Virus record (IMG/VR): IMGVR_UViG_3300030392_000835 | Span: 1-33,287 of that record | DNA length: 33,287 nucleotides | Strand: one strand, 5' to 3' | Source of the DNA: a virus | Taxonomy: Duplodnaviria > Caudoviricetes | Part shown: in pieces, positions 632-25,044 of the stretch | How positions within the stretch are numbered: the stretch's first letter is position 1 | How the letters are laid out: every line of letters starts with the position of its first letter | Translations under genes and position numbers: made by a program | The notes under the pieces: generated by a model | What the model saw: the letters and a program-made list of their open reading frames with translations, nothing else | What the model was told of the DNA's origin: nothing | The model's database searches: none

Positions 632-668
632 ATTGCCGATGTTGTTTATTTACGTAATGGAGGTAGAG

Positions 669-788
669 ATGCCTAAAGTTGGTAAAAGACATTTTTCATA
701 TACCCCAAAGGGCAAGGCTGCTGCCCGTAAGCATGCTAAGAAGACCGGTAGGAAGATGACTACTACCCGTAAAAGAAGGTCTTACTGA
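669..788 (+). CDS. Small, highly basic 39-aa protein (below ORF-track cutoff)
   Basis: MPKVGKRHFSYTPKGKAAARKHAKKTGRKMTTTRKRRSY. SD GGAGGT at 659-664; its TGA overlaps the terS ATG (TGATG coupling). Confidence 0.8.
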   Translation: MPKVGKRHFSYTPKGKAAARKHAKKTGRKMTTTRKRRSY

Positions 789-4535: not shown

Positions 4536-6215
4536 ATGGCTACCTATAACACCGAGAAAGATATACGTGATGCACTGGCTGACGGTAAGTTTGACGGGCC
4601 CGGCGGTGTCTTGGATGAGAATTTACTCAACAGTGCCATTAGAAGTATGCAGGTTAAGGCTGGTGGTTCCCCTTCAAGGCAACAGGTGGAAGCACAGGCC
4701 CAGGGAATTCAACGGCAATTAGAAACCCATGACAACCGTATGTTTATGTCAGGTGGACAGAATTATGTGCGTACTCAAGATTACGGGAGGGTCCCTGTAA
4801 ACCCAGGTGAAACACCGAACCAGGCAATTGCCCGCCACGCTTCAGCACTGGCAAGCCAGTCAGCAGCACTGGCAGCCAGGACTCCCACAGAACAGGTAAG
4901 GTCCCAAAATATAATTAGAGCCCCTTCCGGTTTGCCTACCAGTGACATCTCCGTACTGTATACCTCTCCGGATGCAATATGGAATGCTATGAGCCGTGGT
5001 GAAATAACACCAGAACAGGCCCTTTCTCTTTATCAGGCAAATACTGAAGTGGGTGCAAGGTTAAGAAGCTCTAACCCGGAAGGATACCAGTATCTTCAAC
5101 GTAGAGCAGCAAGGGTAGCCGAAGGAGTCCCTGTACCAGATGATATGGCAGCTTTTGCAGCAGGGGCTGCCTCTCTTGAGGCAGCCAGGGGCAAGGCAGG
5201 GATAGTAACTCCTACTCCTCCCCCCGGAACCGTCGAGGCCCCTGTAGTTCCCGGTAAATCTGGTGATGAAACTTACTTAAAGGACCTGTTTAGTAGACAA
5301 GGTGACGAGTACAAAGTCAGACCTGCATTTTATGATGTCGATGAGGGAGATGGGGCTGATGAGCAACCCAGGTTCACCCCTGAGGTTCCACTTGATATCA
5401 CGCCTCCAGACTCACCTGTAGCCCCACCGATATACTCAGGTGATGTAACTGATACACAGGCTCTTTTAGGGTCACGTGACCCGTTTCGTGCCTATACACA
5501 GTTTCGTGGGGCCACTGAAGGTGTTCCTGGATTTAATCCGTGGATGGGTAGTTGGGATGCGTACCAGCGGTCGCTCGGTAGAGGGTATCAGCCATTAAGG
5601 GGACAGTATTTTCTATCTCCACTAGAAGGAGGCGAAGGTACGTGGGCTGAGTATTTAAGGAGAGGTGGAGGTTTGGGTACAGGAGATGAACTGGGAGGCG
5701 GACTCGCATCACGGTTCGGGGACATTGCCAGTATGATTGCAGACCCTTATGCTGATTATTCACGCTCACCGTATCAAGGCCAGTGGGCAAGGTTTTTTAG
5801 CCCAGAGGGAACAGGTCCCGGAGGCCGTCCACTGGGAGCAGCCGGAGTAGCTTCAAACCTTGCCGATGCAGCCCTTGCTGCAAGAGGTGGCCCTTCTGCC
5901 TTCAATGAGGCATTACGTAATTTATATACGAGAAGGTTTGAGATGTTTGGCGAGATGGACCCGACATTAGAAAAACGTCAGGCACTTCTGAATTATACCA
6001 ACTGGCTTAACCGTGGACTTGGAGCGACAGGCGACCTGGTTCCCGGTGCTAGTATGCCCTCTACACTTGACTATCCTAATGTTACCCCTCGTAATTGGAT
6101 GAATCCTGGCCAGCCTGATGTTGACCAATTTGTTCCAAACGTAAGAAAAACGTCAGGCACTATGCCTACCGAAGTACCAGTATGGCCTCCTCAAGGCCAG
6201 TTTCAGACGGTATAG
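4536..6215 (+). CDS. Hypothetical protein, probable internal virion/ejection protein
   Basis: 559 aa, SD AGGAGG, Ala/Gly/Pro-rich, between the portal and the giant protein. Function inferred from position only. Confidence 0.55.
   Translation: MATYNTEKDIRDALADGKFDGPGGVLDENLLNSAIRSMQVKAGGSPSRQQVEAQAQGIQRQLETHDNRMFMSGGQNYVRTQDYGRVPVNPGETPNQAIARHASALASQSAALAARTPTEQVRSQNIIRAPSGLPTSDISVLYTSPDAIWNAMSRGEITPEQALSLYQANTEVGARLRSSNPEGYQYLQRRAARVAEGVPVPDDMAAFAAGAASLEAARGKAGIVTPTPPPGTVEAPVVPGKSGDETYLKDLFSRQGDEYKVRPAFYDVDEGDGADEQPRFTPEVPLDITPPDSPVAPPIYSGDVTDTQALLGSRDPFRAYTQFRGATEGVPGFNPWMGSWDAYQRSLGRGYQPLRGQYFLSPLEGGEGTWAEYLRRGGGLGTGDELGGGLASRFGDIASMIADPYADYSRSPYQGQWARFFSPEGTGPGGRPLGAAGVASNLADAALAARGGPSAFNEALRNLYTRRFEMFGEMDPTLEKRQALLNYTNWLNRGLGATGDLVPGASMPSTLDYPNVTPRNWMNPGQPDVDQFVPNVRKTSGTMPTEVPVWPPQGQFQTV
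5159..5183 (+). repeat. Dispersed 25-nt exact direct repeat, copy 1 (hairpin core)
   Basis: AGCAGGGGCTGCCTCTCTTGAGGCA, identical to 10298-10322; contains TGCCTC-TCTT-GAGGCA. Confidence 0.9.
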
Positions 6216-6227
6216 AGAGGAGACACT

Positions 6228-6584
6228 ATGGCACAGAATAATCCTTTTGGGAATTTCTATCTTGACCTTTTGGAAGATGACCCAAGAATGGCTTTCCAGG
6301 CAGCTATACCGTATGCCGGGTTTTCTACCCTTGCCCGTCCAGAGCAGAGGCAGAGGGATTACTGGTCTAACCAGTATTCTAATATCTACAACGAGTTCCT
6401 TGGACATAAGGGACAGGGGCTGCAGGAACTGGCATCAGGGGAAAACAAGCCACGGAATTTCGGGACCTTCTCTGAGTTTCTTAGCAATACACCTTTTACC
6501 GAAAGATACGGTGCCCTTACCCCACAGCAGAAAGGTACGGGCATAAGGTCGTTTGCCCCTCAGACAAGACACATATATTTCTAA
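6228..6584 (+). CDS. Hypothetical protein (virion-module gene)
   Basis: 118 aa, SD GAGGAG; its stop directly abuts the ATG of the next gene. Confidence 0.7.
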   Translation: MAQNNPFGNFYLDLLEDDPRMAFQAAIPYAGFSTLARPEQRQRDYWSNQYSNIYNEFLGHKGQGLQELASGENKPRNFGTFSEFLSNTPFTERYGALTPQQKGTGIRSFAPQTRHIYF

Positions 6585-9500
6585 ATGCAAGAGAGAAGCC
6601 GGTATCAGCAACATGGTGAACTGCCTGTATATGATATGGATTATATGCGCAGGCAGGGAATGCCTACGCCTCCGATTCCGGTATACATACCACCTACTCC
6701 GGGACGGCAGGGCCCTGGGAATATAGTGTACCAGGAGCCACCTGCCCCCGTAGACTGGGGACAGAGAGGCATGGATGTCTTACAGGGATTTAGAAGTCTT
6801 CTGGGAAAATTCGACCCTTTCTCTCCAGGAATCTCCTTTGGAAGAAAAGCTCAAAATGTATGGGATAAAGACGAGGCTACCGCAGAAATCAGGGCCGACC
6901 TTGATGCCGGTGCCCCCATACCAAACTTTAGTGCCCCCGTTATAGGAAACATACCGGGCTCCGGTAGGTTTGCGGGACATTTATTAAAGACATTTGAAGA
7001 TGAATTGAAAGCCCTGGGCACGGTTGCGGAAACCGTTACCGACCCTGCTATGGGGCTTCTTACGTCACTTGAAACCCTGCCTATTCCGGTTGACAGTATG
7101 GTTATGCCCCCAGACCCATATATGCCGAGAGGCGGGGGGACAAGTGTTAATCCATTCCACTCCCCAGATGTGGAAGCGAGAAGAACTGCCCTGAGAAACA
7201 CGATTAATCCACGAACTAATGAACCTTATGGGCCGATGGAATCGGCAGCGAAGGCTTATGTTGACGCTGACATACCAGGAATGGAAAGGTTCGTCATGGA
7301 AAGTATCTTTGACCCTATTATTCTTGGAGGACCAATAGTTGGAGGGACTAGAAAATTAAGTGCATTAGGTGGTGCCATGCGCAGGGCACCAAGCCCCCCT
7401 ACAACCCCTCCTATTAGAAAATCTATAGGTTACGATGTAAATAGACAATGGGCTGGCATAGAATCCCCACAAGGACCATCAACAAGATGGACTCAGGAGG
7501 TGGGCCCATCCTATAACCGGTATTGGAGAGAGGGGATGGCAGTTCCCGAACCTCCTGCCCCGCCCGCTCCTGTATCCAGAAGGGACCCGTTTGTTACTCC
7601 GGAACGCCGTATTATTAGGGATGAACAGGGAAGGGAAGTTAATCAGTACTGGTCTGAGGAGAGGCAAGCGTTTGTTGTTCCGGAACGTCGTACCATTATA
7701 GATTCACAGGGCAGGGAAGTTAACCAGTATTGGGTTGATGATGTCACTGTACCCGATAGACCCGTACCTTCCCCTGCAGCAGCAGCCCCTTCCCCTGCAG
7801 ACGCAGCCCCTTCCCCTGCTGCAGCCGTACCGGATAAGACTACCATTGAAGCAGTAAGAGCAGCCTCTTCACTGGAAAATATTAGACTCGGATTAAATCC
7901 ATTTAAGACTATAGATAAAAATGGTAATGGTGTTTATAGGTCTAAGAAGCACAGGGCATATGAAGATAAAGCAATATCGGAAGGCTGGAATGCCAATGAT
8001 AGGTCAGTGGAAAATATAAAACTGGCACAAGAACATGCTGCACAATTAGACTGGTATATACTTAATGATGTATATATGAACCGAGCTACGCTGGGTGACC
8101 CTGATTTTGAAAAGGCTTTGCCCCAGAGGCGACAGACAGCTAACCCTAATGCTCCAGAATTTCAACCAGAAGCAGATTTTGATTCGGTTACTGGTGAATT
8201 TACATTTTTACCATCCGGTTCTGATGTACGGTTCACACCTGCAGCAGCAGCCCCTTCCCCTGCAGATGCAGCCCCTTCTCCTGCTGTAGCCGTACCTGAA
8301 ATATCTGCTGGTAGGCAGGCTGCACGGACGATTGATGATGTTGAGGCTTCCGATGAGATGGTAAACATATCTCCTGAAGATATGGACAGGGGCGCACAAC
8401 AGGAATTAGTTCGCCAGTCCGGGGACGCAAGTGGTCACGACGGGGCACGGGATGTATTGCAGGACGATGCTTTACGTGAAGTTGTTGATTCCGGTGGAGG
8501 TACATTTGACGACATTAAAAAAAGGCGGGATGCCCTCATATCATTTGTGAAGAACCGTTTCAGTGCTGATTCCTATATGAAATTTACGGGAAAAGGACAT
8601 GATTCAGGATTTAGCATGAGGGCCATAGTTGACTTCAGGCATAGAACTCGTAATTCCTCAAAAGATGTTCACGAAGCATTTCAGTATGGTGGTGTAGATG
8701 ACGTAGTTACCGCTATCCAACTTTCGGCAGGCCCCGTACCACGTGCGGTTATGACGTTTCAAAACTTTATGAAAATTTCTATTGAACCATTACTGGGGAA
8801 AATGAAAGGTGACCTTTTAGGTGTTACGTCTAAAGATATCAGCAAGATATTGATTGCACGGCACTACAAGTCACTTATGGATAATCCAAAAACAAGATTT
8901 AACAGGGATAATCTTCCTACGCCTGTAGATGATACAGGCCAACTACTTGATGCGGATATTGATGTTCTCGACTGGGAAAGGCGTATGAGGGAATCGATGT
9001 CTCCCTCGGAGTGGGCCCGTGTGGAAAAGGGAGTTGAGTCTATTCGTGACCTCTATATCAGGCAACGGGAGAACCTGGTAAAGAACGGGATAATTTCACG
9101 GGAAAACGCAGACATGTTTGCCGAGGAGTATCCCTGGTATAACCCAATATCATACATAGAATTTCTTGATGTGAATAAAGGTGCATCAGGGGTGCGTAAC
9201 AGTTCATCTCCTTTTTCTAACTTCAGTTCCGGGCTACGTCATTTTTCCAAAAAGGATGCAATAGACGAGGCTGGAAAAATACATGTTTTTAATGCGGTTG
9301 ACCCGTTGTCTCCGGAAGTTATGTTGAAGCAATTAACGCAAAATGAAATGCGGATAAGGCGTAATACAATTGGCAAGATGATATACGAGGCCCATGAAGG
9401 GAGAGAGTTGACAGACGAGTCTCTTGGTTGGTTACAGGACGTAACAAAAGATTTCCAGAGTAGAGAGCTTGTAGACGGAAAATACATTACCGTTAATGAC

Positions 9501-12500
9501 ATTGTTCCATACCAGGGTTCCACAGACCTTAAACGAGGTGAAGGATATCTTGTTTTCTATGAAAATGGTAAGCGTAAAGTATATGGTGGTATAGGTAAAA
9601 AGAGAGTTGATGGTAAACCACAACCATTGCCTAGCCCTATATTTGATATCGTATACGGAAAAGGCGGGCTTGCATCTAAAGGAAACTCTGAACTGGAAAA
9701 CTGGTGGGGGTGGATGGCAGGAATAAAACGTGGGTATTTAACAACGTTTAACCCGATATTTATGTTTGGCAACGGTATCTTAGATATGTTTACCGTTTGG
9801 GTTAAACGGGGTGTTCTGCCTCCTGGTGTTATAAATCAAATTGTTAAAAATTATGATGGCATTGTTAACGAGGCAGATAATGTTCTTATTGATATTATGA
9901 GAACATCCGGGGCATTCCAGTCACGTACTACAGATGTTAATACCTATGCGAGGAATTTACAGAGGAGGTTGGACACAGAAAACCTTGATGGGCTTATTCT
10001 AATGGCTGATGATTTTCATACCAGTACAAAGGTTAAAAATAAACTGGATGAAATCTTTGATGAGGGATTTCTTAGGACAAAGATTAAATTGGTAGGACAA
10101 AAATGGAGTCGCACCTCGCAGGTTATTGAACAGGCTGCACGTATGGAAGTTGCCGAAAGGACCATGATTGCACGACTTGGCGCACCGGAATGGAACAGGT
10201 TGAACCGTTTAAGCCGTGAACAGTTCATTGAAGAGTTACTTCACAATTATCGTGGTACTCCCGGCAAGGGACTGGCAGACCATCCAGCTATAAGGGAAGC
10301 AGGGGCTGCCTCTCTTGAGGCAACGGTAAATTTCTACCGTGGTGGTGAATGGATTAGGCGTATCAACCCTCTAACTTATTTCTTAAATCCAGCTATGGAA
10401 GGGACAAAGCTCCCATTCAGGGCAATAGGGGTAAACCTACATCCTACTATAAGACCTGTACGTAATCCCGAACCTGGTGGTCCTCTATGGGAATATGGGG
10501 AATACATGAAAGGTAGGCGCAGAGGCGTTACAGGTAAGTTGGAAGACTTAGATATCACAAGAAGAACTACTACCGGGAACGACCTTCTTGATGATTTACG
10601 CTACAAGCATAATACTGACACTATCCCCATGATGGATTTTATCCGTACCGCCTTTACAGGTAAGGGGCTTACCGGCGCAAATGGTGCAATGGTACGGATG
10701 GGAGGGATTTTAACTGCCCAGGCAACTATCATGGGATGGAATCTTATGTGGGCTGATGAATGGGGATACTGGGATATTCCCGGATGGATAAAGTATTCGG
10801 GATTCCTAATACTCCTTCCACCTAAGAGAGATGAAAATGGTGAATATATCCGTGACGATAAAACAGGAAGGGTAAAGCCGAATTTCATTGTAATACCTCA
10901 CAGGACGAGGGAGTGGTCTATAGTTACTGCGTTTCCTCAGTTTGCGATGGAAAAGATAGCAACCTCTTTTGATAAGTCATCAGAAGGCAAGGCAAGCTAT
11001 AAGGCATTTGTAAGTAGGCTTTTCTCAGAAGCAAGTCCCGTGGACAACTTACCGGTACTGGGAGGTGACCCTACCAATATATCTACATACCTTAAACCAT
11101 TTGTTGGTTTGCGTGAGCTAGGAGAAGAATTGGAGGGGAAGGATTACTGGAGAGGAGAGAAAATAGTTCCTCCCGACTTAGAGTACAGGGACCCTTCTGA
11201 CCAGTACCAGCCCTTTACATCACCTACCATTAAGACGATTTCCCGCCTTCTACCGGAGGACAGTCTGTATCGCAGTCCTTTAAGAGCGGAACATCTTGTA
11301 AACAATATATTTGGTGGTACGGGTAAAGTTGCATTATCTCTTCCTGACTGGATTATTGATACCATTGATGGAATACACAGAAAGAATAAGATGTCCGAAC
11401 CCAATACCCCTGATGAACAGGCTATGCACTACCGTTCCCTAAAGACAAGTATGGAACGTAAGGTTTACAGGGCATCTATTGCACGGCAAGGTATATACGA
11501 ATTAGAACAATTTGAAGACGCATTGCGTAAACCTAGAAATCAAATGAAGAATGTTTTTTCGGATATACCCCTTCTAGGTGCTTTGTCTCGTAGGTATAAC
11601 CCTCCTTATTCTGGTGGATTACGTGAAATTGGAGAACGCCAACAGGAAGCGTTGGGATTTAATATAGACAAAGAGAACCATGCAGAGCTACGGACAACTC
11701 TTAAAAGAACACGCAAGACGATATATGCTGCACAACTTGAAGATGATTCAGAGATTTCAGCATGGGCACGACGTAAAAATCCCAGTGAGCTTGTAGGTAT
11801 AAGTCCTACGCAGTGGCGAAAAAATAGGTCAGAAAGATTTGGCAATTATGAATTTTTTAAACAACAAATGATAGATATGTTTGGAGAAAATACAGTATAT
11901 GAGCTTAGTAGTGATGACCAGGAACAATATTACAATGCAGCATTCCAACTAGCTTCCAAGGCTGGGGTTATAGATATTAGGTTGCAGGCAGAGGTTTTGT
12001 TTACTGCGTATCAGAATATCAGATATCCAGAGGGGGAAGACCCCGACCTGGAACTTGTTAATAAGTTTTATGAAGACCGCAAACTATTTGTAGATAAATT
12101 GCGCAGTAAGTACGGGGATGAGTCAAAAGAGTTTGGTGATTTTGAAAACCTAAGACAGTCCAGTATGACCGAAACGGAAAGAAGATACGATAAGGCTCGT
12201 GAAATTATGAATCCCTATTTCAATATAGGAAGAAATATCAGAGAGCTTGTACCTGGGGCATCCCCGCAACAGGTCCAGATATGGGATGGATATCAAAAAG
12301 CAAGGACCAGACAGGAGAAAGACTGGTATACAGAAAAATATAAAGGCATCATAAATATGTTTAAATCCCACAGGGATTTAGCACGTAGGCGGTATGTTAT
12401 GAGTACCATTGATGTAAACGGTCAGTCCAACCTGGATGAGGCCCTTGCGTTTTGGTATGGAGATTCATATTACAGTGACAAAGCTGTAACAATGTCAGCA

Positions 12501-12566
12501 AGAGGGTTAATTGATTATTTACACAGTCCTGCGATTTATAATAAGCTACCTTCTGCGGTACGTTAA
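6585..12566 (+). CDS. Giant internal virion / polyvalent protein with LPD38-like domain
   Basis: 1993 aa. About 10760-11350 reads YWDIPGWIK...IVIPH...KDYWRGEKIVPP...QYQPFTS...SPLRAEHLVNNIFGGTG, resembling LPD38 as recalled. Pro-rich repetitive N-terminus. Confidence 0.7.
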   Translation: MQERSRYQQHGELPVYDMDYMRRQGMPTPPIPVYIPPTPGRQGPGNIVYQEPPAPVDWGQRGMDVLQGFRSLLGKFDPFSPGISFGRKAQNVWDKDEATAEIRADLDAGAPIPNFSAPVIGNIPGSGRFAGHLLKTFEDELKALGTVAETVTDPAMGLLTSLETLPIPVDSMVMPPDPYMPRGGGTSVNPFHSPDVEARRTALRNTINPRTNEPYGPMESAAKAYVDADIPGMERFVMESIFDPIILGGPIVGGTRKLSALGGAMRRAPSPPTTPPIRKSIGYDVNRQWAGIESPQGPSTRWTQEVGPSYNRYWREGMAVPEPPAPPAPVSRRDPFVTPERRIIRDEQGREVNQYWSEERQAFVVPERRTIIDSQGREVNQYWVDDVTVPDRPVPSPAAAAPSPADAAPSPAAAVPDKTTIEAVRAASSLENIRLGLNPFKTIDKNGNGVYRSKKHRAYEDKAISEGWNANDRSVENIKLAQEHAAQLDWYILNDVYMNRATLGDPDFEKALPQRRQTANPNAPEFQPEADFDSVTGEFTFLPSGSDVRFTPAAAAPSPADAAPSPAVAVPEISAGRQAARTIDDVEASDEMVNISPEDMDRGAQQELVRQSGDASGHDGARDVLQDDALREVVDSGGGTFDDIKKRRDALISFVKNRFSADSYMKFTGKGHDSGFSMRAIVDFRHRTRNSSKDVHEAFQYGGVDDVVTAIQLSAGPVPRAVMTFQNFMKISIEPLLGKMKGDLLGVTSKDISKILIARHYKSLMDNPKTRFNRDNLPTPVDDTGQLLDADIDVLDWERRMRESMSPSEWARVEKGVESIRDLYIRQRENLVKNGIISRENADMFAEEYPWYNPISYIEFLDVNKGASGVRNSSSPFSNFSSGLRHFSKKDAIDEAGKIHVFNAVDPLSPEVMLKQLTQNEMRIRRNTIGKMIYEAHEGRELTDESLGWLQDVTKDFQSRELVDGKYITVNDIVPYQGSTDLKRGEGYLVFYENGKRKVYGGIGKKRVDGKPQPLPSPIFDIVYGKGGLASKGNSELENWWGWMAGIKRGYLTTFNPIFMFGNGILDMFTVWVKRGVLPPGVINQIVKNYDGIVNEADNVLIDIMRTSGAFQSRTTDVNTYARNLQRRLDTENLDGLILMADDFHTSTKVKNKLDEIFDEGFLRTKIKLVGQKWSRTSQVIEQAARMEVAERTMIARLGAPEWNRLNRLSREQFIEELLHNYRGTPGKGLADHPAIREAGAASLEATVNFYRGGEWIRRINPLTYFLNPAMEGTKLPFRAIGVNLHPTIRPVRNPEPGGPLWEYGEYMKGRRRGVTGKLEDLDITRRTTTGNDLLDDLRYKHNTDTIPMMDFIRTAFTGKGLTGANGAMVRMGGILTAQATIMGWNLMWADEWGYWDIPGWIKYSGFLILLPPKRDENGEYIRDDKTGRVKPNFIVIPHRTREWSIVTAFPQFAMEKIATSFDKSSEGKASYKAFVSRLFSEASPVDNLPVLGGDPTNISTYLKPFVGLRELGEELEGKDYWRGEKIVPPDLEYRDPSDQYQPFTSPTIKTISRLLPEDSLYRSPLRAEHLVNNIFGGTGKVALSLPDWIIDTIDGIHRKNKMSEPNTPDEQAMHYRSLKTSMERKVYRASIARQGIYELEQFEDALRKPRNQMKNVFSDIPLLGALSRRYNPPYSGGLREIGERQQEALGFNIDKENHAELRTTLKRTRKTIYAAQLEDDSEISAWARRKNPSELVGISPTQWRKNRSERFGNYEFFKQQMIDMFGENTVYELSSDDQEQYYNAAFQLASKAGVIDIRLQAEVLFTAYQNIRYPEGEDPDLELVNKFYEDRKLFVDKLRSKYGDESKEFGDFENLRQSSMTETERRYDKAREIMNPYFNIGRNIRELVPGASPQQVQIWDGYQKARTRQEKDWYTEKYKGIINMFKSHRDLARRRYVMSTIDVNGQSNLDEALAFWYGDSYYSDKAVTMSARGLIDYLHSPAIYNKLPSAVR
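7589..7733 (+). repeat. Tandem duplication with 81-nt (27-aa) period
   Basis: FVTPERRIIRDEQGREVNQYW and FVVPERRTIIDSQGREVNQYW, starting at 7589 and 7670. Confidence 0.85.
7773..7831 (+). repeat. 59-nt direct repeat, copy 1 (PAAAAPSPADAAPSPAAAVP linker)
   Basis: 56/59 identical to 8238-8296. Confidence 0.9.
8238..8296 (+). repeat. 59-nt direct repeat, copy 2 (PAAAAPSPADAAPSPAVAVP linker)
   Basis: 56/59 identical to 7773-7831; offset 465 nt = 155 codons. Confidence 0.9.
10298..10322 (+). repeat. Dispersed 25-nt exact direct repeat, copy 2
   Basis: Identical to 5159-5183; both encode AGAASLEA in the same frame. Confidence 0.9.
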
Positions 12567-16185: not shown

Positions 16186-17481
16186 ATGCCTGTACAGGGA
16201 AGAACACGTGAACAGCTTAGACAGTCCATAGGACACAACCTGGGGGCCCTTAAAACAGGCACTGCTACAGGTGGCACTACTGAAACCCTTATTGATACCA
16301 AGACCCTGAGGGGTGGTAACGATACTTACAACGGCAAGCTAATTATTGTCACGGATGCTAGTGATGGTACTACCCAGGATACCCCTTATATTGATGATTA
16401 CACCGCAAGCAGTACCACTATTGCATTTCAACACGCATTAAGTTTTACTGTTGCCAGTGGTGATACTTATGAAATATGGGATGAGCCATATAAGCCATCG
16501 ACTATTCATGACTTTATCAACCAGGCAATCATAGACGCTACAGGTCAGGCATATGACCCCGTAGAGAACCCGGATATGTCCAGTTCTCCCCATACCGCAT
16601 TACATGCTGATGGTAAGGACTTGAGGTTCGATATACCCAGTAACATCTCTATCATCAATCATATCTACTATCGTAGCAGTGTATCGTTTACGAGCCTGCA
16701 TTCATGTAATGCTGCATTTGACGAGACTATAGATTCAGACATAACCGTAACTGTAGATACCCAGGATAAGAAACAGGGCACAGGTAGTAATAAGTTCGTT
16801 ATAGCTACTGGGGCAAGCGCAGGGGATATAGCAACAGATTCTATAACCAGTAAAGATATTTCTAAATATGACTATCTAGAGTGCTGGGTTAAAAGTACAG
16901 TTGCAACATCATCAGGAAACTTAAAGATATTACTAGATGATTCTGCTAGCTGTGCCTCTCCCACTGTTAATGGAGAAGTATTAAGTATTCCAGCTTTAAC
17001 AGCAGATACATGGACATATGTACGTATTGCCCTGGCGAATCCAGAATTGGATACTGCAATTATATCCATTGGACTTGAATATGATTCCGACCTTGGGGCA
17101 TGCCAGGTAAGACTTGATGATATCAAGGTAGTTCAGAACGATACTGCGATATGGGAGATATTTCCCAGGCATCTATGGAAGATAGACCGTAGTGCCCGTG
17201 ACCTGGTACTTACCGATGGTGGTAAGTTTGAAGCAGGATACTCGATGTTAAAGATAACAGGAGGGGATAAGCCTGCTCTTCTATCCGCAGAATCATCCAC
17301 CACGGAGATAGATGATTCATACATAATAGCGAGGGCTACGGGTCTTGCGTTTGCATCCGCATCCGGTGGTACTGGTACAGACCCTGACCAGTTACGGCAA
17401 CAGGCTGCTTTCTGGTTGGGCCTTGCGGAACAGGCAAAGCGTTCATTTCCGTTGTTAATCACCGGTAGGGTGGTTGAGTAA
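16186..17481 (+). CDS. Putative head-tail adaptor (tail tubular A-like) with inserted beta-sandwich domains
   Basis: N-terminal TREQLRQSIG helix, IHDFINQAI and a helical C-terminus as in podovirus adaptors. Central KDISKYDYLECWVKS...TWTYVRIAL...VRLDDIKVV resembles a galactose-binding/CBM-like jelly roll. Confidence 0.55.
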   Translation: MPVQGRTREQLRQSIGHNLGALKTGTATGGTTETLIDTKTLRGGNDTYNGKLIIVTDASDGTTQDTPYIDDYTASSTTIAFQHALSFTVASGDTYEIWDEPYKPSTIHDFINQAIIDATGQAYDPVENPDMSSSPHTALHADGKDLRFDIPSNISIINHIYYRSSVSFTSLHSCNAAFDETIDSDITVTVDTQDKKQGTGSNKFVIATGASAGDIATDSITSKDISKYDYLECWVKSTVATSSGNLKILLDDSASCASPTVNGEVLSIPALTADTWTYVRIALANPELDTAIISIGLEYDSDLGACQVRLDDIKVVQNDTAIWEIFPRHLWKIDRSARDLVLTDGGKFEAGYSMLKITGGDKPALLSAESSTTEIDDSYIIARATGLAFASASGGTGTDPDQLRQQAAFWLGLAEQAKRSFPLLITGRVVE

Positions 17482-19421
17482 TGACCAGCAAGGTCTTAGA
17501 TGATAACGAGGTATATATCGGGGGTACTTACTACCCTGTTACAAAACCCGTCCAGTCAACCCTTGCGTCTATATATCCAGCTAAAATAACTATTGGAGAT
17601 ACTACCAGGGACAGCCAGTTAAGGTCCTCTGTTATATCATGGTCAGACTGGCGTGGAGGCATTGGCGTAGACCGTATGCAGGGTGCTTCCGATTCTGATA
17701 GAGCATGGTATTCTACCTGCCAGTTGAGATACAGACATCACCTGGTTCTTCCTGCACTTTCCACAGAAACCAGGGCTCAACTATCTAATGGTACTGCGGT
17801 ATCAGGAGAGGTTACATTTATAGCAGAACTGGGAACAGTATTATATGTAGGCTTTAGTAATGCACCGTATTATTACTCTGAAGGTGGTGAGTCCCACGGG
17901 GCTGACCATCTTACCCAGGTTACCAGTAGCAGTAGCGCATATGAATTTCCCTCTACCCCTACCGATTCTATAACTATACGTATGGGTGGGACTGATTATA
18001 TAGTAGTGGCCCATACTGGTGGATATAGCTATTTTTCATCTGCGACAACCGTTGCCGATAAAACTACTGATGCAAAGTTCCTTACCTTCTGGGATGACAG
18101 GTTATGGGGAATAGATGTAACTGGGCAGCTATGGTATACATTGACCATATCTGGTACTCCCGTTAACGATGCACAACTACCTGTTCAGAGTGGGTTTGTT
18201 ACTGACTTGTTTGTAGGCCGTGATGCCAGTGGTGAACAGATAATATATGCTGCCACAAAGGTAGGGTTATATGCCCATGATGCTGCTAATGGCAGGTGGG
18301 TAGAGACACAGTTCCAGCTTCCATTCCATAATTTCAATGGTGTTGGCTCGGTAAGGTGGCGTGATTCTATATACACCCCTAGTGGCCTGGGTATATATAA
18401 ATATATTAACGGCAATAACAATGCTGTTATCACTGTTATGGGGCCAGACAGGGATGATGGATTACCTGCGGTACAGCGTGGAACGATTAAGAAGTTGATA
18501 GGGACTCATACAGAATTACTGGCTGCCGTAGACGCAACTACTGCCCCTGCTTCACAGGCAGCTACGGATTGGTCTTTCCATGTACCCGTAGGTCAGGCCA
18601 GCCGTACATGTGTAATGGATGCCAGTACAGGACAATCATCAATCGTTGGATGGAATGATACTGGCTGGGAAACCAAGTGGTCTGCTCCCACTTCTGCAGC
18701 CGGAAAACCTGTAGAGCATTTAATAGTGACAAATTCAGGAAAGGGCGATTACAGGATGTGGTGGGGATTTAACGGAAAGTTGTATAACCAGCTTGTGCCT
18801 TTTGACGTTATTAACCCTGCACAGCTATCCACGTTTGAGTATGACACTTCAGGTGTACATGAGACTCCCTGGTTTGATGCGCAGCAGGCAGAGGTAGACA
18901 AGCTGGCATTAAAGCTAAAGGTTGAAGTAGAGGATTCTGGAAGTAATGAAACTGTTAAGGTTGACTATGCACTTAATTATTCTGATACATATGAAACATC
19001 ACTGGGAACTATAAGCAGTGATGGTACAACCACGTACACGTTTGGTAGTGGCGTAGGAGTAAGTTTCAGGTCTATCAGGTTTAAGCTAACCCTTGCCAGA
19101 CAGGCAGGGTCAACAATTGCGATAATGAAAAAGTCTCCTGATGTTGTTTCTTTAACCCTGGAATACAGGAAGAAGCTAGAGGCAAAGTACGGTCATACCG
19201 TGGAAGTGGATTTAAACAAGACATACAAGGGAAAGGACCCTGCACAGTTACGTTCAGCCCTTGTCTCATCTATTGAGGCTAATACTCTACAGGAGTTTAC
19301 ATTCAGGGATGATTCGGGTGGCACAAGAAACTACTATGTTGATATCACATCGGCTACCGGTATTGAATATACCGGGTATGACGAGCGTGGTACATCACGT
19401 ATTACACTGGTAGAACCATGA
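17481..19421 (+). CDS. Tail nozzle / tail tubular B-like (stabilisation) protein
   Basis: 646 aa, WSDWRGGIG near the N-terminus, beta-propeller-like blades (FWDDRLWG, LWYT), C-terminal ETPWFD...FRSIRFKLTL; follows the adaptor. Confidence 0.7.
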   Translation: MTSKVLDDNEVYIGGTYYPVTKPVQSTLASIYPAKITIGDTTRDSQLRSSVISWSDWRGGIGVDRMQGASDSDRAWYSTCQLRYRHHLVLPALSTETRAQLSNGTAVSGEVTFIAELGTVLYVGFSNAPYYYSEGGESHGADHLTQVTSSSSAYEFPSTPTDSITIRMGGTDYIVVAHTGGYSYFSSATTVADKTTDAKFLTFWDDRLWGIDVTGQLWYTLTISGTPVNDAQLPVQSGFVTDLFVGRDASGEQIIYAATKVGLYAHDAANGRWVETQFQLPFHNFNGVGSVRWRDSIYTPSGLGIYKYINGNNNAVITVMGPDRDDGLPAVQRGTIKKLIGTHTELLAAVDATTAPASQAATDWSFHVPVGQASRTCVMDASTGQSSIVGWNDTGWETKWSAPTSAAGKPVEHLIVTNSGKGDYRMWWGFNGKLYNQLVPFDVINPAQLSTFEYDTSGVHETPWFDAQQAEVDKLALKLKVEVEDSGSNETVKVDYALNYSDTYETSLGTISSDGTTTYTFGSGVGVSFRSIRFKLTLARQAGSTIAIMKKSPDVVSLTLEYRKKLEAKYGHTVEVDLNKTYKGKDPAQLRSALVSSIEANTLQEFTFRDDSGGTRNYYVDITSATGIEYTGYDERGTSRITLVEP

Positions 19422-20109: not shown

Positions 20110-22023
20110 ATGGCTGCTCCTACCATTAACTTTGCAGGATTCGTATATGACGATGCGGGAGATGCCGTATCTGGGGCAACTGTTCATATATATGATAAGA
20201 ACTCCACCAGTACTGCACGTGAATCATCCAGTATTACGACTAACTCAAGCGGGTACTGGAGTTATGCCCATGCTACCCCAGGGGAATTTGACGTAGAGGT
20301 TGTAAGTGGTGCTTCAAAGAGGCGGTTTAAGTTTGATGACAAGATACATATTGCGGAAGTAGACGCAGAGAAGATAAGCATACGTGGTAACGAGGGGGCT
20401 ATAGCTGCCCTGTTCATGTATGCGGATGAAGGGGATGATGTTAGTGACCAGTGGCGTGTCGATGTAGGTACTGATGGTGTTCTGGCCTTTGGTAACGATG
20501 CTGCTTCCCAGGGTTCATTCGTAGACCATTTAACTATTACTCCCAATTCAACAGTAGCTAACAGCACTGTTGCATTTAAGGGTGGGGTCACAATTGCCGG
20601 GGACTTGACTGTCACTGGTGACGACATCACTATGGCTACGAATACCTCTACTGCCATACTCGTAGCTGATGGTACTAACTATAATCCTGTGGTTCCTACT
20701 GGGGTTATTGACCTAGCTAATGATGGTGCGTTTACCGTAGACAACACATTCATATCTAGCCAGACAGAGATAACCTCTGGGCTAGCTGCTGCCGATGAGC
20801 TGCTATATTCCGATGGGGGCACAGTTAAAAAGATTGGACTTGATAATCTTGTCGAACTTGGACCAGCCCTTTCTACTGAGGATGCTATAGCTAACGGTGA
20901 CTACATCTTGTTCTTGGATGGTGGTGCTAGTGGGAACATGAACAAAGAAGCGGTCCATGACTTGGCTACTCTGTTTGCAGGTAGTGGACTAACAGCTACT
21001 AACTCTGTAATAGCTGTAGATACCCTGAATCAAGACACTTCTGGAACTGCTGCTATTGCTACTACTGTAACCATAACGGATAATGAAAGTACTGATGAAG
21101 ATAATGCCATTATCTTTACGTCGGGTGGGGATGTTGACGGTGGGAATATTGGTTTAGAATCAGACGGTACTCTAACTTATAACCCTAGTACAGGGAAGAT
21201 TACAGCTACTGGTTTTCTAGGGGCTATTGATGGGATTCTAGGAGCGAATAGTGCTGCTGCTGTTACAGGAACGACTGGAGTTTTTACCACTAGTATAGAT
21301 ATTACTGGCTCTGCTGGTATTATCCTAGAAAATGACGAGACTATTACTAATAGTACTAATGGAACAGTTGCTTTTAGTGGTGGTATAGCAATACCCAATG
21401 CAGGGAATATTGGTTCCGCAAGTGATTTAGATGCTATCGCTATAGCATCTAACGGTGTAGTTAATTTTACACAAGCACCAACAGTAGCATCTGCTGCTGT
21501 CCTAACAGCAGGGGTTGAAAATATCTGGGTTCCTGCAGCAGCTATGACTCCAAGGGATAATGCTGGTTGTGCTGCTTTAACTACAGTTGCAGCAGGTACA
21601 AATGGCAGACCTGACTTTCATGTTTTGGACTTTGATAATTCTTCTGACGAACATGCTCAGTTCACCATAGCCATGCCTAAGTCATGGGACGGTGGAAATG
21701 TTTATTACTATGTATATTGGATAGGTCTTGCAGCCACTACTGGGGTGACATGGGGATTGGAGGTTCTTTCTCTTAACGACAACGAGGAGTTTAACCAAGC
21801 ATATGTTAACCCTATTTTAGTTGATGATGATTCTCAGGGAGATGTTACCGAATTACTTGTTAGTGCTAAGAGTGCCGCTATAGCCTGTAGTGGTGCAGAT
21901 AACGACCTATTATGTTTTCAGGTATATAGAGATGTGTCTGCTGGCAATGATGACATGGCTGGCGATGCCAGACTCTGGGGCTTACTCCTAGAATATACAA
22001 CTAATGCAGCGACGGACGCATAA
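20110..22023 (+). CDS. Tail fibre / receptor-binding protein
   Basis: 637 aa with an N-terminal Ig/carboxypeptidase-regulatory-like segment (GFVYDDAGDAVSGATVHIYD...TTNSSGYWSY), G/T/A/D-rich shaft with knob repeats, and a C-terminal beta-sandwich (LDFD...AQFTIAMPKSWDGG). Confidence 0.75.
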   Translation: MAAPTINFAGFVYDDAGDAVSGATVHIYDKNSTSTARESSSITTNSSGYWSYAHATPGEFDVEVVSGASKRRFKFDDKIHIAEVDAEKISIRGNEGAIAALFMYADEGDDVSDQWRVDVGTDGVLAFGNDAASQGSFVDHLTITPNSTVANSTVAFKGGVTIAGDLTVTGDDITMATNTSTAILVADGTNYNPVVPTGVIDLANDGAFTVDNTFISSQTEITSGLAAADELLYSDGGTVKKIGLDNLVELGPALSTEDAIANGDYILFLDGGASGNMNKEAVHDLATLFAGSGLTATNSVIAVDTLNQDTSGTAAIATTVTITDNESTDEDNAIIFTSGGDVDGGNIGLESDGTLTYNPSTGKITATGFLGAIDGILGANSAAAVTGTTGVFTTSIDITGSAGIILENDETITNSTNGTVAFSGGIAIPNAGNIGSASDLDAIAIASNGVVNFTQAPTVASAAVLTAGVENIWVPAAAMTPRDNAGCAALTTVAAGTNGRPDFHVLDFDNSSDEHAQFTIAMPKSWDGGNVYYYVYWIGLAATTGVTWGLEVLSLNDNEEFNQAYVNPILVDDDSQGDVTELLVSAKSAAIACSGADNDLLCFQVYRDVSAGNDDMAGDARLWGLLLEYTTNAATDA

Positions 22024-22817
22024 TGAGTAGATTTGGATATCAAGTTTTAGGATTCGGAAGCACAACATCAAGAGTATCTGCGGCAACACCGGCTGCCCTT
22101 GAATTAGATATGGACGCTTCTAACGATGGTGACTCTCTCGTGCTTATACATGCAGATGCGTTTGACTTTGCCGATGATGACTTTACATTAGAAGGTTGGT
22201 TCCGTTCTGAAAGAACTCATGCAGGTGGCCCAACAAGTGGATGGAGAGCATTGTTTGCCATAATGACAGGTGCTGGATACGATGGGTACGGTGGTAATAT
22301 TTGGATACGTCACGATAGTGAATCTATTGAATGGAATTGGAACAACTCTGCTGGTGCAGGTTTAGTTGACTTTACAAGTAGCAACGCACAGCCACAGTCA
22401 AGCTCGCCAAGTACTTGGTTTCATTTTGCCGCTGTTATGGATGGTGGTACAGCGGAGATGTTTATTAATGGAGTGTCAGGTGGGACGACATCAAGAAATG
22501 GAAATGTTGTAGATGCTTCAGCACTTAGGATAGGTGTTTCTACTTCTGGTACTGCGGATTTCAAGGGATGGATAGATGAGATAAGAATTAGTAATAATGC
22601 TAGATACGACAGTGATTTCAGTGATAGTTTACCAACATCTGAATTTACATCTGATGATAATACGATAGTCCTACTACATATGAATGGTGATAATGACGGT
22701 CAAGTGTTTACAAATTCAGCATCTGGAACTGCTGCTAAAGACGTAACAATTACTGTCGGAGATGATGCCAAGACTAATACATCATATGGTATTGGTACAG
22801 GTAATGCACCGTCATAA
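22023..22817 (+). CDS. LamG/concanavalin A-like lectin domain protein (tail appendage)
   Basis: DFTLEGWFR, TWFHFAAV, MFING, FKGWIDEIRISNNARY, DDNTIVLLH. Confidence 0.85.
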   Translation: MSRFGYQVLGFGSTTSRVSAATPAALELDMDASNDGDSLVLIHADAFDFADDDFTLEGWFRSERTHAGGPTSGWRALFAIMTGAGYDGYGGNIWIRHDSESIEWNWNNSAGAGLVDFTSSNAQPQSSSPSTWFHFAAVMDGGTAEMFINGVSGGTTSRNGNVVDASALRIGVSTSGTADFKGWIDEIRISNNARYDSDFSDSLPTSEFTSDDNTIVLLHMNGDNDGQVFTNSASGTAAKDVTITVGDDAKTNTSYGIGTGNAPS

Positions 22818-22831
22818 TAAATGGAGTAACT

Positions 22832-23077
22832 ATGCCTAATCCATGCTCATGTAATTATAATCAAAATGGCTCTACGTCATGCAATCTATGTGGGTCATTG
22901 AGTGAATGTTATTGTCAGCCGAACTGTGATTGTTCCACATGTGCTAGTAAGAAGGTCACGGCTTATAATAAAGCTAATGACTGCCCCTGTGGGGCGTGGA
23001 GAGAAACATATACATGGCAATCTGGCACAACGGTCTATGTGCCGTATCCTATACATCCAGCTTGTACATGCGAGTAA
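22832..23077 (+). CDS. Metallothionein-like Cys-rich small protein
   Basis: 13 Cys in 81 aa, five CxC motifs plus CxxC; SD GGAG. Confidence 0.65.
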   Translation: MPNPCSCNYNQNGSTSCNLCGSLSECYCQPNCDCSTCASKKVTAYNKANDCPCGAWRETYTWQSGTTVYVPYPIHPACTCE

Positions 23078-23104
23078 CATATATCTAGAGGGTAAAGGTA
23101 GCTT

Positions 23105-23284
23105 ATGAACTTAATCAAGGCTGTTAGGTTTGTTTTACAGTATCAATCTTGTATTGATGAACTAATGTCACTGGTAACGACTTTGCACAATTCAGTGAAA
23201 GACGGAAAGATTAGCCAGAAAGATAGCTCAAGATGTATGAAAAAGTATTGGGCCCTGGTAAAAGCAATAGAAAAGGTATCCTAA
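23105..23284 (+). CDS. Small helical hypothetical protein, 59 aa (below ORF-track cutoff)
   Basis: MNLIKAVRFVLQYQSCIDELMSLVTTLHNSVKDGKISQKDSSRCMKKYWALVKAIEKVS, preceded by AAGGT. Confidence 0.7.
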   Translation: MNLIKAVRFVLQYQSCIDELMSLVTTLHNSVKDGKISQKDSSRCMKKYWALVKAIEKVS

Positions 23285-23356
23285 TGGTAGTGGCAGTCTC
23301 CCGTAGAGCGACGTAAAGCATGCGGGCGGTATCGTGGTATAGGGTGGTTAAAATAA

Positions 23357-23404
23357 ATGGCTGTTTCAGAAAAAGATTTACAAGAGGAGTTAGCTGATGG
23401 ATAG
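23357..23404 (+). pseudogene. Possible truncated gene start or leader peptide MAVSEKDLQEELADG
   Basis: 15-codon ORF with a purine-rich upstream region; contains the GAGGAG SD of the next gene and overlaps its ATG. Confidence 0.3.
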
Positions 23405-24446
23405 AATCAAAGCGTTCTTTCTAGTAGTTAAGCTGTTCTTTTTAGGATGGTGGCTGAATATAAAAGCTGCATGGGCATACACAATAGCCATACCGGGTAA
23501 GGTGTTTCGTGCCATCAAGCGTTCACCTATCGCAGCATATCGCAAGGTAGCAGCATGGCGTGATTGGATTATTGCCAAGGTTGAGTACCTCAACTCCGAA
23601 TCTGCCAAATGGAAACGAACATTTAATATCCTCAAAAGCCCTTATTCATTCTTGAGAATGATGGGGCTGTCTCCTCAGATGGCTATAGGACTACTTGCGG
23701 TAGGGTCAACCGCTGGTACTGGTGTCGTGGTTAACGAAACGATTCTCTCGGAGCGTAGCTTCAGCAATGGTGATTCAGGAGTCTATGCTGCACCAACAGA
23801 TATACCCACATCGTTTTCCGATGACAATAATACGTTGCGTATTGACTTAGGCACTACGCCAGTACGAGAAATTACTATCGAGAACGTATCAGTTGGTACG
23901 GTTTTCACTGGTTCTGCACTGCCAACCGGGCAGAATAATGTAGTTCAAATTTCAGGAGTGCCACTCTCTGCTACGTCAACCAGGCTGGAAGTAGGGCATC
24001 TGATTTTTGAGAAGAGTAGATGCAAGGAACTGCTTGTGTCTGACGTTGTAGCTCATACCCTGATTATCAAGGGGAATGCATCGGACGGTCAGTCAATTGC
24101 GCCATCACCAGGTACTGGAAGGATGAGGGCTATTGGTGGTGGGCACCATCAAGCTGAAGCAATGACTACATCCGGTGGTACTTATGACCGAATATGGATT
24201 CAAGCCCCAACGAGTGGTGTGAACGGTAAGGTAGGCACGTTGAAACTTTCTAATCTATTTACCAAGGGTGGTAACTGTGTGCTAAATCGCATGGATATCG
24301 GGACGCTTGAGATTAACCTTAATGAAGTTGGTGAAGGTAATGGGTTTGCCACTAAAGAATTTGTGATTGCGACCTCTACTACAGCATCTGTTATGACCAT
24401 ATCTGATAATGTGGAAGTGACGATAGCAGAACCTGACACTCAATAA
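23397..24446 (+). CDS. Membrane-anchored protein with amphipathic N-terminus and beta-rich C-terminal region
   Basis: 349 aa; hydrophobic/basic Trp-rich first ~90 aa, second hydrophobic stretch (MAIGLLAVGSTAGTGVVV), then a G/S/T-rich beta region; SD GAGGAG. Confidence 0.75.
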   Translation: MDRIKAFFLVVKLFFLGWWLNIKAAWAYTIAIPGKVFRAIKRSPIAAYRKVAAWRDWIIAKVEYLNSESAKWKRTFNILKSPYSFLRMMGLSPQMAIGLLAVGSTAGTGVVVNETILSERSFSNGDSGVYAAPTDIPTSFSDDNNTLRIDLGTTPVREITIENVSVGTVFTGSALPTGQNNVVQISGVPLSATSTRLEVGHLIFEKSRCKELLVSDVVAHTLIIKGNASDGQSIAPSPGTGRMRAIGGGHHQAEAMTTSGGTYDRIWIQAPTSGVNGKVGTLKLSNLFTKGGNCVLNRMDIGTLEINLNEVGEGNGFATKEFVIATSTTASVMTISDNVEVTIAEPDTQ

Positions 24447-24454
24447 GGAATATT

Positions 24455-24847
24455 ATGGATGTTAAGAACATGAAAGCCTCTATTGCTGTTATCGTAGCAA
24501 TAGTCGCTCAGGCGTTTGGCTTAATCTGGTATGTTGCACAACTTGATAGTACGGTTACGAATCTTGATTCTGCTGTTGAGGTAATGCAGGAGTCTCAGGC
24601 AACAGTCGATGTTGCCGTACTCCAGACAACAGTTGAAGGGCTGAAAGAAACACTTGATTCCTCAGATTTGGAAGAGGCTTTAGATGAGTTGGAGGCCCGA
24701 CTCGATGATGTAGAAACTACTCAAGCTCTCATAAACAATGAAATGCGTACCATAATGGCAGAGCATTCCACCATAAATGAAACCTTAAAAAGTATGGGGA
24801 AAGAGGGGTATGGAGATAACAGAACTTATGGTAATTACGGGAAATAA
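24455..24847 (+). CDS. Single-TM coiled-coil membrane protein (holin/spanin-like position)
   Basis: TM segment SIAVIVAIVAQAFGLIWYVA followed by a long acidic heptad repeat. Confidence 0.7.
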   Translation: MDVKNMKASIAVIVAIVAQAFGLIWYVAQLDSTVTNLDSAVEVMQESQATVDVAVLQTTVEGLKETLDSSDLEEALDELEARLDDVETTQALINNEMRTIMAEHSTINETLKSMGKEGYGDNRTYGNYGK

Positions 24848-24861
24848 CGGACGGTTATATA

Positions 24862-25044
24862 ATGGATAAAAGATGGTGGGAAATAATAGGGCACCTACGT
24901 CCCCAGGTACTTACGGCAATTATAATCCTTGGCATTATAGCTATCATAGCTATGTATGAAGATTTACCGGAAATTGCGGGAGTGGCAGGGGCGGGAATCA
25001 TTGCATTAAGCAAGGATGTTATAACCTCTGATACTAATTCTTAG
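24862..25044 (+). CDS. Small two-TM protein, holin-like
   Basis: 60 aa; VLTAIIILGIIAIIAM and IAGVAGAGIIAL hydrophobic segments; last gene of the late arm. Confidence 0.65.
   Translation: MDKRWWEIIGHLRPQVLTAIIILGIIAIIAMYEDLPEIAGVAGAGIIALSKDVITSDTNS

Follow-up and report, generated by a model that had tools for sequence, protein, structure and literature searches.

A membrane-anchored beta-solenoid protein and a small membrane protein as a candidate release module of marine tailed phages with no detected endolysin

The end of the late operon and its conserved core

Tailed phages normally pair a holin with an endolysin. The locus considered here raises the question of how a tailed phage might leave its host when the end of its late operon, where such pairs are found, codes for small membrane proteins and a protein of no known family alongside no recognizable wall-degrading enzyme. 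The window, i.e., the whole stretch of DNA analyzed, is a linear virus record of 33,287 bp that is 85% complete. Words from it are found in marine metagenomes, with four runs of one study containing half or more of them, while no RNA runs containing its sequence are listed. A previous sequence-only reading proposed that five ORFs (22832-25044) constitute an egress cassette directed at a wall-less host, with a 349-aa protein as its candidate effector.

Based on Pfam and PHROG matches, the + strand of the window encodes TerS, TerL, a 1,993-aa LPD38 protein, the major capsid protein, tail-region genes, a fibre and a LamG protein, with the replication genes being convergent to these late genes. 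As no tape measure was detected, the phage reads as podovirus-like. The genome is incomplete in this window, as had been cautioned, but the late arm is nevertheless whole, extending from TerS through to the convergent early genes, and the DNA missing from the record is likely that of early genes. The region flanked by the presumed portal and scaffold genes (4536-12566) codes for Pro/Gly-rich proteins and the LPD38 protein. These probably serve in ejection, and none was found to contain a lytic transglycosylase domain. The five ORFs are indeed situated on the + strand at the end of the late operon: they follow a conserved tail-region gene (17481-19421, +), which furnishes an independent anchor for the comparisons below, and the genes for the fibre (20110-22023) and the LamG protein (22023-22817), and they abut the convergent early genes, which begin at 25034. 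Four of the five are preceded by a Shine-Dalgarno-like motif, and scans for promoters and terminators returned chance-level results. Barring one weak Rz-like match discussed below, none of the five matches a Pfam or PHROG family of known function.

Comparisons across viral records indicate that two of these genes, coding for p349 (349 aa; 23397-24446, +) and p60 (60 aa; 24862-25044, +), form a conserved core, with 2,213 and 1,875 homologues, respectively. The p349 family is represented at 80 viral loci at 52–76% identity, including phages of different morphotypes, and a profile search of 50%-cluster representatives recovered 184 matches that include a distant solenoid clade of 230–330 aa. In most of the 34 loci of this distant clade, a homologue of p60 or p59 or a 2-TM gene adjoins the solenoid gene. 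A tblastn search over the 80 solenoid loci recovered p60 in 18, p59 in 11, p130 in seven and the Cys-rich peptide in none, whereas profile searches placed p60 at most 1.5 kb from the solenoid gene in 34 of the 80, many of which are truncated, and found it in all 13 whole records. In a six-frame search, p60 was present in each of the 30 solenoid-bearing records that are 85–100% complete, three of which are part of the p60 alignment by construction and which are kin in groups rather than 30 independent events. These carriers span at least five unrelated phage architectures: podoviruses like that of the window, a type that carries an integrase, phages of 42 kb whose capsid protein has 746 aa, siphoviruses possessing a tape measure or tail tube, and 66–85 kb phages with PolA and ribonucleotide reductase. 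The solenoid gene is absent from T7-like controls (0/17).

The upstream tail-region gene offers a view of the locus from outside the p349 family. It was used to fetch 80 loci, of which 37 retain 3.5 kb or more of downstream sequence; 30 of these possess the solenoid gene, and the seven that do not all end within 4.21 kb. Where 4.3 kb or more is available downstream, the solenoid gene follows the fibres in 28 of 28 loci, 20 of them on contigs not found by p349 itself. Thus, the central place accorded to the 349-aa protein by the earlier reading is borne out by its being a core gene at the end of the late operon in this set and by its constant co-occurrence with p60. The LamG gene and phrog_13182 retrieved too few loci to serve as alternative queries. 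Records selected by an SNase-family gene were rejected as an independent control, with 6/7 of those at least 90% complete carrying the solenoid gene and the sole one without it, G089, ending within the tail-region genes. The SNase-family gene often adjoins the solenoid gene (L035:1336-1818 and relatives).

The proposal of a fixed five-gene cassette was not sustained beyond this core: the tblastn counts and the variable order of the genes led us to reject it. The order of genes around the solenoid varies between architectures and, in several, the solenoid gene lies away from the tail genes. In G001, about 13 kb separates the two core genes, and in the large (66–85 kb) phages the solenoid gene follows that for ribonucleotide reductase, far from p60. 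In the closest complete relative, G012, the p60 homologue (L089:12977-13201) opens the late operon, ahead of a 715-aa gene and TerS, and is not beside the solenoid gene.

Among the other ORFs, p59 (59 aa; 23105-23284, +), a small, helical basic protein with a DGKI..E.S...W.L motif, is a frequent accessory: it is encoded no more than 1.5 kb from the solenoid gene at 23 of the 80 loci and is present in 10 of the 13 whole records, two of them marginal. p130 (130 aa; 24455-24847, +) is an occasional accessory combining one strong N-terminal TM with an acidic, coiled-coil-like body, and it matches PHROG families of unknown function, with a weak match to an Rz-like coiled coil (E 0.006). Spanins pair an inner-membrane coiled coil with a lipoprotein. 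We rejected a spanin role for p130 given that it has no lipoprotein partner, that no lipobox is present in the cassette ORFs (the five lipobox-pattern matches in the window are all in shadow frames) and that it is confined to 7/80 loci. The Cys-rich peptide (81 aa with 13 Cys; 22832-23077, +) has its own ribosome-binding motif and, going by its distribution, probably lies outside the conserved module.

The solenoid protein p349 and its small membrane partner

p349 displays the features earlier ascribed to it, namely a basic, Trp-rich amphipathic N-terminus, hydrophobic segments and a beta-rich domain. Among its first 92 residues, 17 are K/R, 4 are D/E and 6 are Trp, and amphipathicity peaks at residue 34; hydrophobic windows cover residues 4–22 and 94–113, with the beta-rich domain following thereafter. 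The N-terminal helices are likely cytoplasmic or interfacial, and the membrane anchor, at about residues 93–112, is Gly/Ala-rich and weakly hydrophobic. A first full-length model was mediocre (pLDDT 63.5); residues 131–349 were then modelled as a beta-solenoid with pLDDT 93.3 and pTM 0.88. The relatives of p349 are mostly 430–500 aa long with additional N-terminal TMs; in some, a 2-TM gene and a separate solenoid gene take the place of the single ORF. Of 92 representatives, 86 have between one and four TM segments, and 81 of these 86 carry more positive charge ahead of the last TM; the solenoid is therefore predicted to face outward. N227, D230, G231, S233, D264, N338 and E340 are each kept in 71–83 of 93 representatives, and a loop at residues 242–252 (24120-24152, +), corresponding to interface residues 112–122 of the modelled domain, is nearly invariant in alignment A1.

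The oligomeric state of p349, which the sequence-only reading had singled out for prediction, was addressed with three copies of the solenoid. These are predicted to bind with a homo-oligomer score of 0.47 as against 0.00 for the best control, on a scale where the mark is reached by 20/30 solved pairs and 1/23 single chains and with the three-copy job lying outside the calibration of the tool. Agreement between runs covers at least 89% of contacts, and pLDDT is at least 85. In the resulting model, one copy makes contacts via both its faces and the two outer copies via one face each, with loop 242–252 resting on the flank of the neighboring solenoid. We read this pattern as an open, extendable chain and not a closed trimer. 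Taken together, the models and the charge distribution predict p349 to be a membrane-anchored, outward-facing solenoid that associates with itself side by side.

p60, in turn, is a small membrane protein that is holin- or pinholin-like in its anatomy. In its alignment (A5), RPQ is invariant, one Glu is conserved and motifs of small residues are seen. Of the earlier description of it as a 2-TM holin-like protein, one strong TM (residues 14–32) stands, while the second, Gly/Ala-rich segment is weaker, making a 2-TM topology likely rather than certain. As in holin cassettes, it is a small membrane protein encoded in a late operon; neither it nor its relatives match any Pfam or PHROG family, those of described holins included.

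From the late position, the co-occurrence of the two genes and the absence of an endolysin (see below) we infer a lytic role, and consider release, whether by self-assembly or by an enzymatic route, to be the probable function. For the more specific proposal that p349 and p60 are a two-component release module for a bacterium without peptidoglycan, with the solenoid acting by self-assembly, we regard the case as evenly poised. In this scheme, p60 would accumulate and permeabilize the single membrane as a holin-like timer, with p349 anchored beside it and its solenoid facing outward. The solenoids could then join side by side beneath the S-layer into arcs, rings or a lattice, and their assembly would tear membrane and S-layer, bursting the host; p59 might be a cytoplasmic accessory.

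A less probable alternative, though the foremost among the competing readings, is that the solenoid has enzymatic activity. It would be a depolymerase tethered to the membrane and, after depolarization of the membrane by p60, would cut S-layer glycans or a different surface polymer, standing in for the endolysin much as in pinholin/SAR systems. The domain has no match in the PDB at E<=0.001 (Foldseek), and a wide fold search (VIA) recovered generic beta-helices alone (best Z 3.8, rmsd 3.8, 104 aligned), among which the weak best matches (Z 3.8 or less) are tailspikes, glycoside hydrolases and pectate/alginate lyases; matches of this strength neither place the domain in a family nor keep it out of one. 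Searches of BFVD recovered five entries, none of them named; the ESM Atlas yielded unnamed clusters alone, all under 0.9 and viral wherever an origin is recorded. Beyond these fold matches, an enzymatic role is in keeping with the weakly hydrophobic, Gly/Ala-rich anchor, with the retention of N227, D230, D264, N338 and E340 in 71–82 of 93 diverse representatives and with the glycoprotein-rich surfaces described for SAR202 (PMC11994032). However, a Z below 4 is background for any beta-helix, the conserved Asn/Asp residues may be structural, and the long basic N-terminus and the extra TMs of most relatives would block release of the domain. Right-handed beta-helix tailspikes and polysaccharide lyases (5w6f, 4mxn) share the beta-solenoid architecture, but p349 differs from them in being membrane-anchored and short with no recognizable catalytic motif. 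Moreover, its conservation across phages with different fibres would suit a self-assembly surface more than a variable glycan target.

Muralytic enzymes in the window and its relatives

The claim that the window codes for no recognizable muralytic enzyme holds across 40 ORFs (Pfam and PHROG), 49 further stop-to-stop frames (PHROG) and six-frame searches with ten families. It also extends beyond the window to its near-complete relatives. Since the ORF caller missed the amidase of one control (G078), we treat the six-frame searches as primary and ORF-based scans as secondary. In six frames, seven families (PF00959, PF08291, PF01510, PF01464, PF05838, PF13539 and PF01551) were found in none of the 30 solenoid carriers that are 85–100% complete, nor in any of the 24 at 90% or more, and the virion-type SLT is likewise absent from these 30. 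By comparison, 12 of 17 T7-like controls from the same collection (11 of the 14 at 90% or more) have matches over the cut-off, by type amidase in 12, SLT in five and lysozyme in one, these controls being a single clade with an easily detected amidase that is not matched to the carriers for habitat or divergence. CHAP, Amidase_3 and Hydrolase_2 were found in none of five records in six frames, and ORF-based Pfam scans of 471 cluster representatives (>=80 aa, from 13 records) gave no muralytic match. GH108 matched neither carriers nor controls and is hence uninformative.

These searches bear on a further alternative, which we consider unlikely, wherein the host has peptidoglycan and an endolysin of unrecognized type is encoded elsewhere; p60 would then be a conventional holin, with p349 as an accessory protein of the envelope. 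A muralytic fold of unknown type could hide in these phages because most of their proteins match no family; further, five of the 17 controls, two of them complete, also show no match over the cut-off, and the host assignment is tentative. On the other hand, at least five unrelated architectures would each need both undetectable endolysins and undetectable virion hydrolases, and the tail-anchored neighborhoods contain no other conserved enzyme-sized gene beside p60.

Slightly more improbable is a role for p349 in superinfection exclusion or receptor masking as a surface protein with no part in release. Its membrane anchor and predicted outward orientation, its differing position among architectures and the presence of an integrase in at least one carrier would be compatible with such a role. 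Exclusion genes are usually patchy and variable, however, whereas p349 is co-oriented with the late genes, near-universal in its lineage, tied to p60 and conserved at 53–76% identity between morphotypes. That p349 is a virion fibre or another structural protein is very improbable despite its location after the fibre genes, its beta-helix fold and its predicted self-association, as it bears TM segments in nearly all representatives, is common to podo-like and sipho-like phages, is distant from the tail genes in several and has a predicted interface that reads as an open chain and not a closed spike trimer. Accordingly, both roles that the sequence-only reading had named as potentially fatal to its proposal fit p349 poorly.

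The host and comparable systems

The self-assembling release module posited above presupposes a host without peptidoglycan. The host looks bacterial, judging from the gene content of the relatives, which encode RecA, RuvB, DnaB, DnaG, PolA and sigma-70 region 4, and from a tRNA-Trp-like 5′ half with a CCA anticodon in G010 (L092:5910-5953, −), located between the integrase and an excisionase-like gene. This half is a probable attP; integration at the 5′ half of a tRNA is less usual. Its best plasmid matches are from Clostridioides and actinobacteria (87–93%), which point loosely to Terrabacteria. Within the bacteria, we lean towards a SAR202-type Dehalococcoidia host on an argument that is partly circular: such a host is favored because the virome is of a marine bacterial type and has no detectable wall hydrolase for either exit or entry. 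Marine Dehalococcoidia, including SAR202, are described as being without peptidoglycan synthesis and as having an S-layer-like coat (PMC10284905, PMC11994032, PMC10444878).

Direct links to this host were not forthcoming. The prophage homologues that the earlier reading proposed to look for in SAR202/Dehalococcoidia did not materialize, with neither the p349 alignment nor TerL having a relative in GTDB. INPHARED likewise offered no match for p349 and only matches of about 22–28% for TerL; an integrase scan of metagenomes yielded two short phage contigs only, contigs overlapping the attP-like stretch gave partial tRNA matches only, and cluster look-ups and a search for homologues of the ribonucleotide reductase returned no taxonomy. 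In the literature, marine Chloroflexota viruses have been linked by Hi-C, with lysis genes not described in the accessible part of that source (PMC13035462), while the main texts of PMC4981710 and PMC7174320 never mention SAR202 or Chloroflexi, though their supplements may carry host predictions. Certain host-like genes in the carriers, namely RuvB (G009, L095:17420-18355, −), and Hsp20 and YbjQ (G001, L084:7346-7774, −; G003, L109:13214-13597, +), are candidates for host phylogeny.

With respect to known lysis systems, the module shares its end-of-late-operon position and a holin-sized membrane protein with holin–endolysin(–spanin) cassettes, including the pinholin/SAR variety, and resembles pinholin/SAR-endolysin systems in having a membrane-anchored partner with a Gly/Ala-rich helix. 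It differs in its lack of a muralytic domain, a lipoprotein spanin and a holin-family match, and in having as partner a beta-solenoid of no known family; as no muralytic enzyme is detected, we do not count it among the holin cassettes. In SAR endolysins, a Gly/Ala-rich anchor at the N-terminus precedes a lysozyme-type domain, whereas the anchor of p349 is at residues 93–112 and its domain is a beta-solenoid. TatC is absent from all 50 records in which it was sought.

The nearest functional analogue, by analogy of mechanism, is the archaeal pyramid system. The virus-associated pyramids of Sulfolobales viruses, built by PVAP of SIRV2/STIV and GP43 of SIFV (PMC10791045), likewise involve a self-assembling membrane protein acting against membrane and S-layer with no wall hydrolase, self-assembly being predicted only in the case of p349. 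However, the pyramid proteins are small (GP43 is 10 kDa) and belong to non-tailed archaeal viruses, while the solenoid protein is of 35–50 kDa, is accompanied by a dedicated partner and belongs to tailed phages of bacterial type. Homology to PVAP or GP43 did not emerge from the Pfam and PHROG searches, in which neither core gene matches any family. Tailed haloarchaeal viruses share the tailed form, an S-layer-enveloped host and the lack of an endolysin, and differ from the present phages, for which the host signs are bacterial. The main lysis players of these haloarchaeal viruses are termed "completely uncharacterized", and the exit of tailed viruses from S-layer cells without peptidoglycan is presented as unresolved even for archaea, in the portion of the source available (PMC10791045).

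The p349–p60 module is real and widespread, and the release mechanism that we infer for it is undescribed in the openly accessible literature searched: no description of the module was found there. It presents two abundant, conserved candidate egress genes, for which a confidently modelled domain and a predicted interface are available. More tentatively, it may be that in the tailed phages of SAR202 the endolysin has given way to a membrane-anchored solenoid that polymerizes side by side into a large portal across membrane and S-layer, with a new holin family setting the time. If this were true, it would constitute a bacterial counterpart of the archaeal virus pyramids, and the two genes a marker for the whole SAR202 virome. 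Should the host be SAR202, the pair would also flag phages infecting a major lineage of the dark ocean, none of whose phages we found described in the literature searched, and p349/p60 would represent a new class of membrane-disrupting protein.

Two further observations concern the gene content of the carriers. A segment resembling the C-terminus of ribosomal L7/L12 exceeds the Pfam cut-off in phage proteins of G001 (L082:4609-5073, −) and G002 (L101:5653-5937, −). In addition, runs of small, very basic Lys/Arg-rich ORFs (57–98 aa) are found upstream of the distant solenoid (L203, L205, L209 and L228), and a similar 51-aa basic ORF precedes TerS in the window (633-788).
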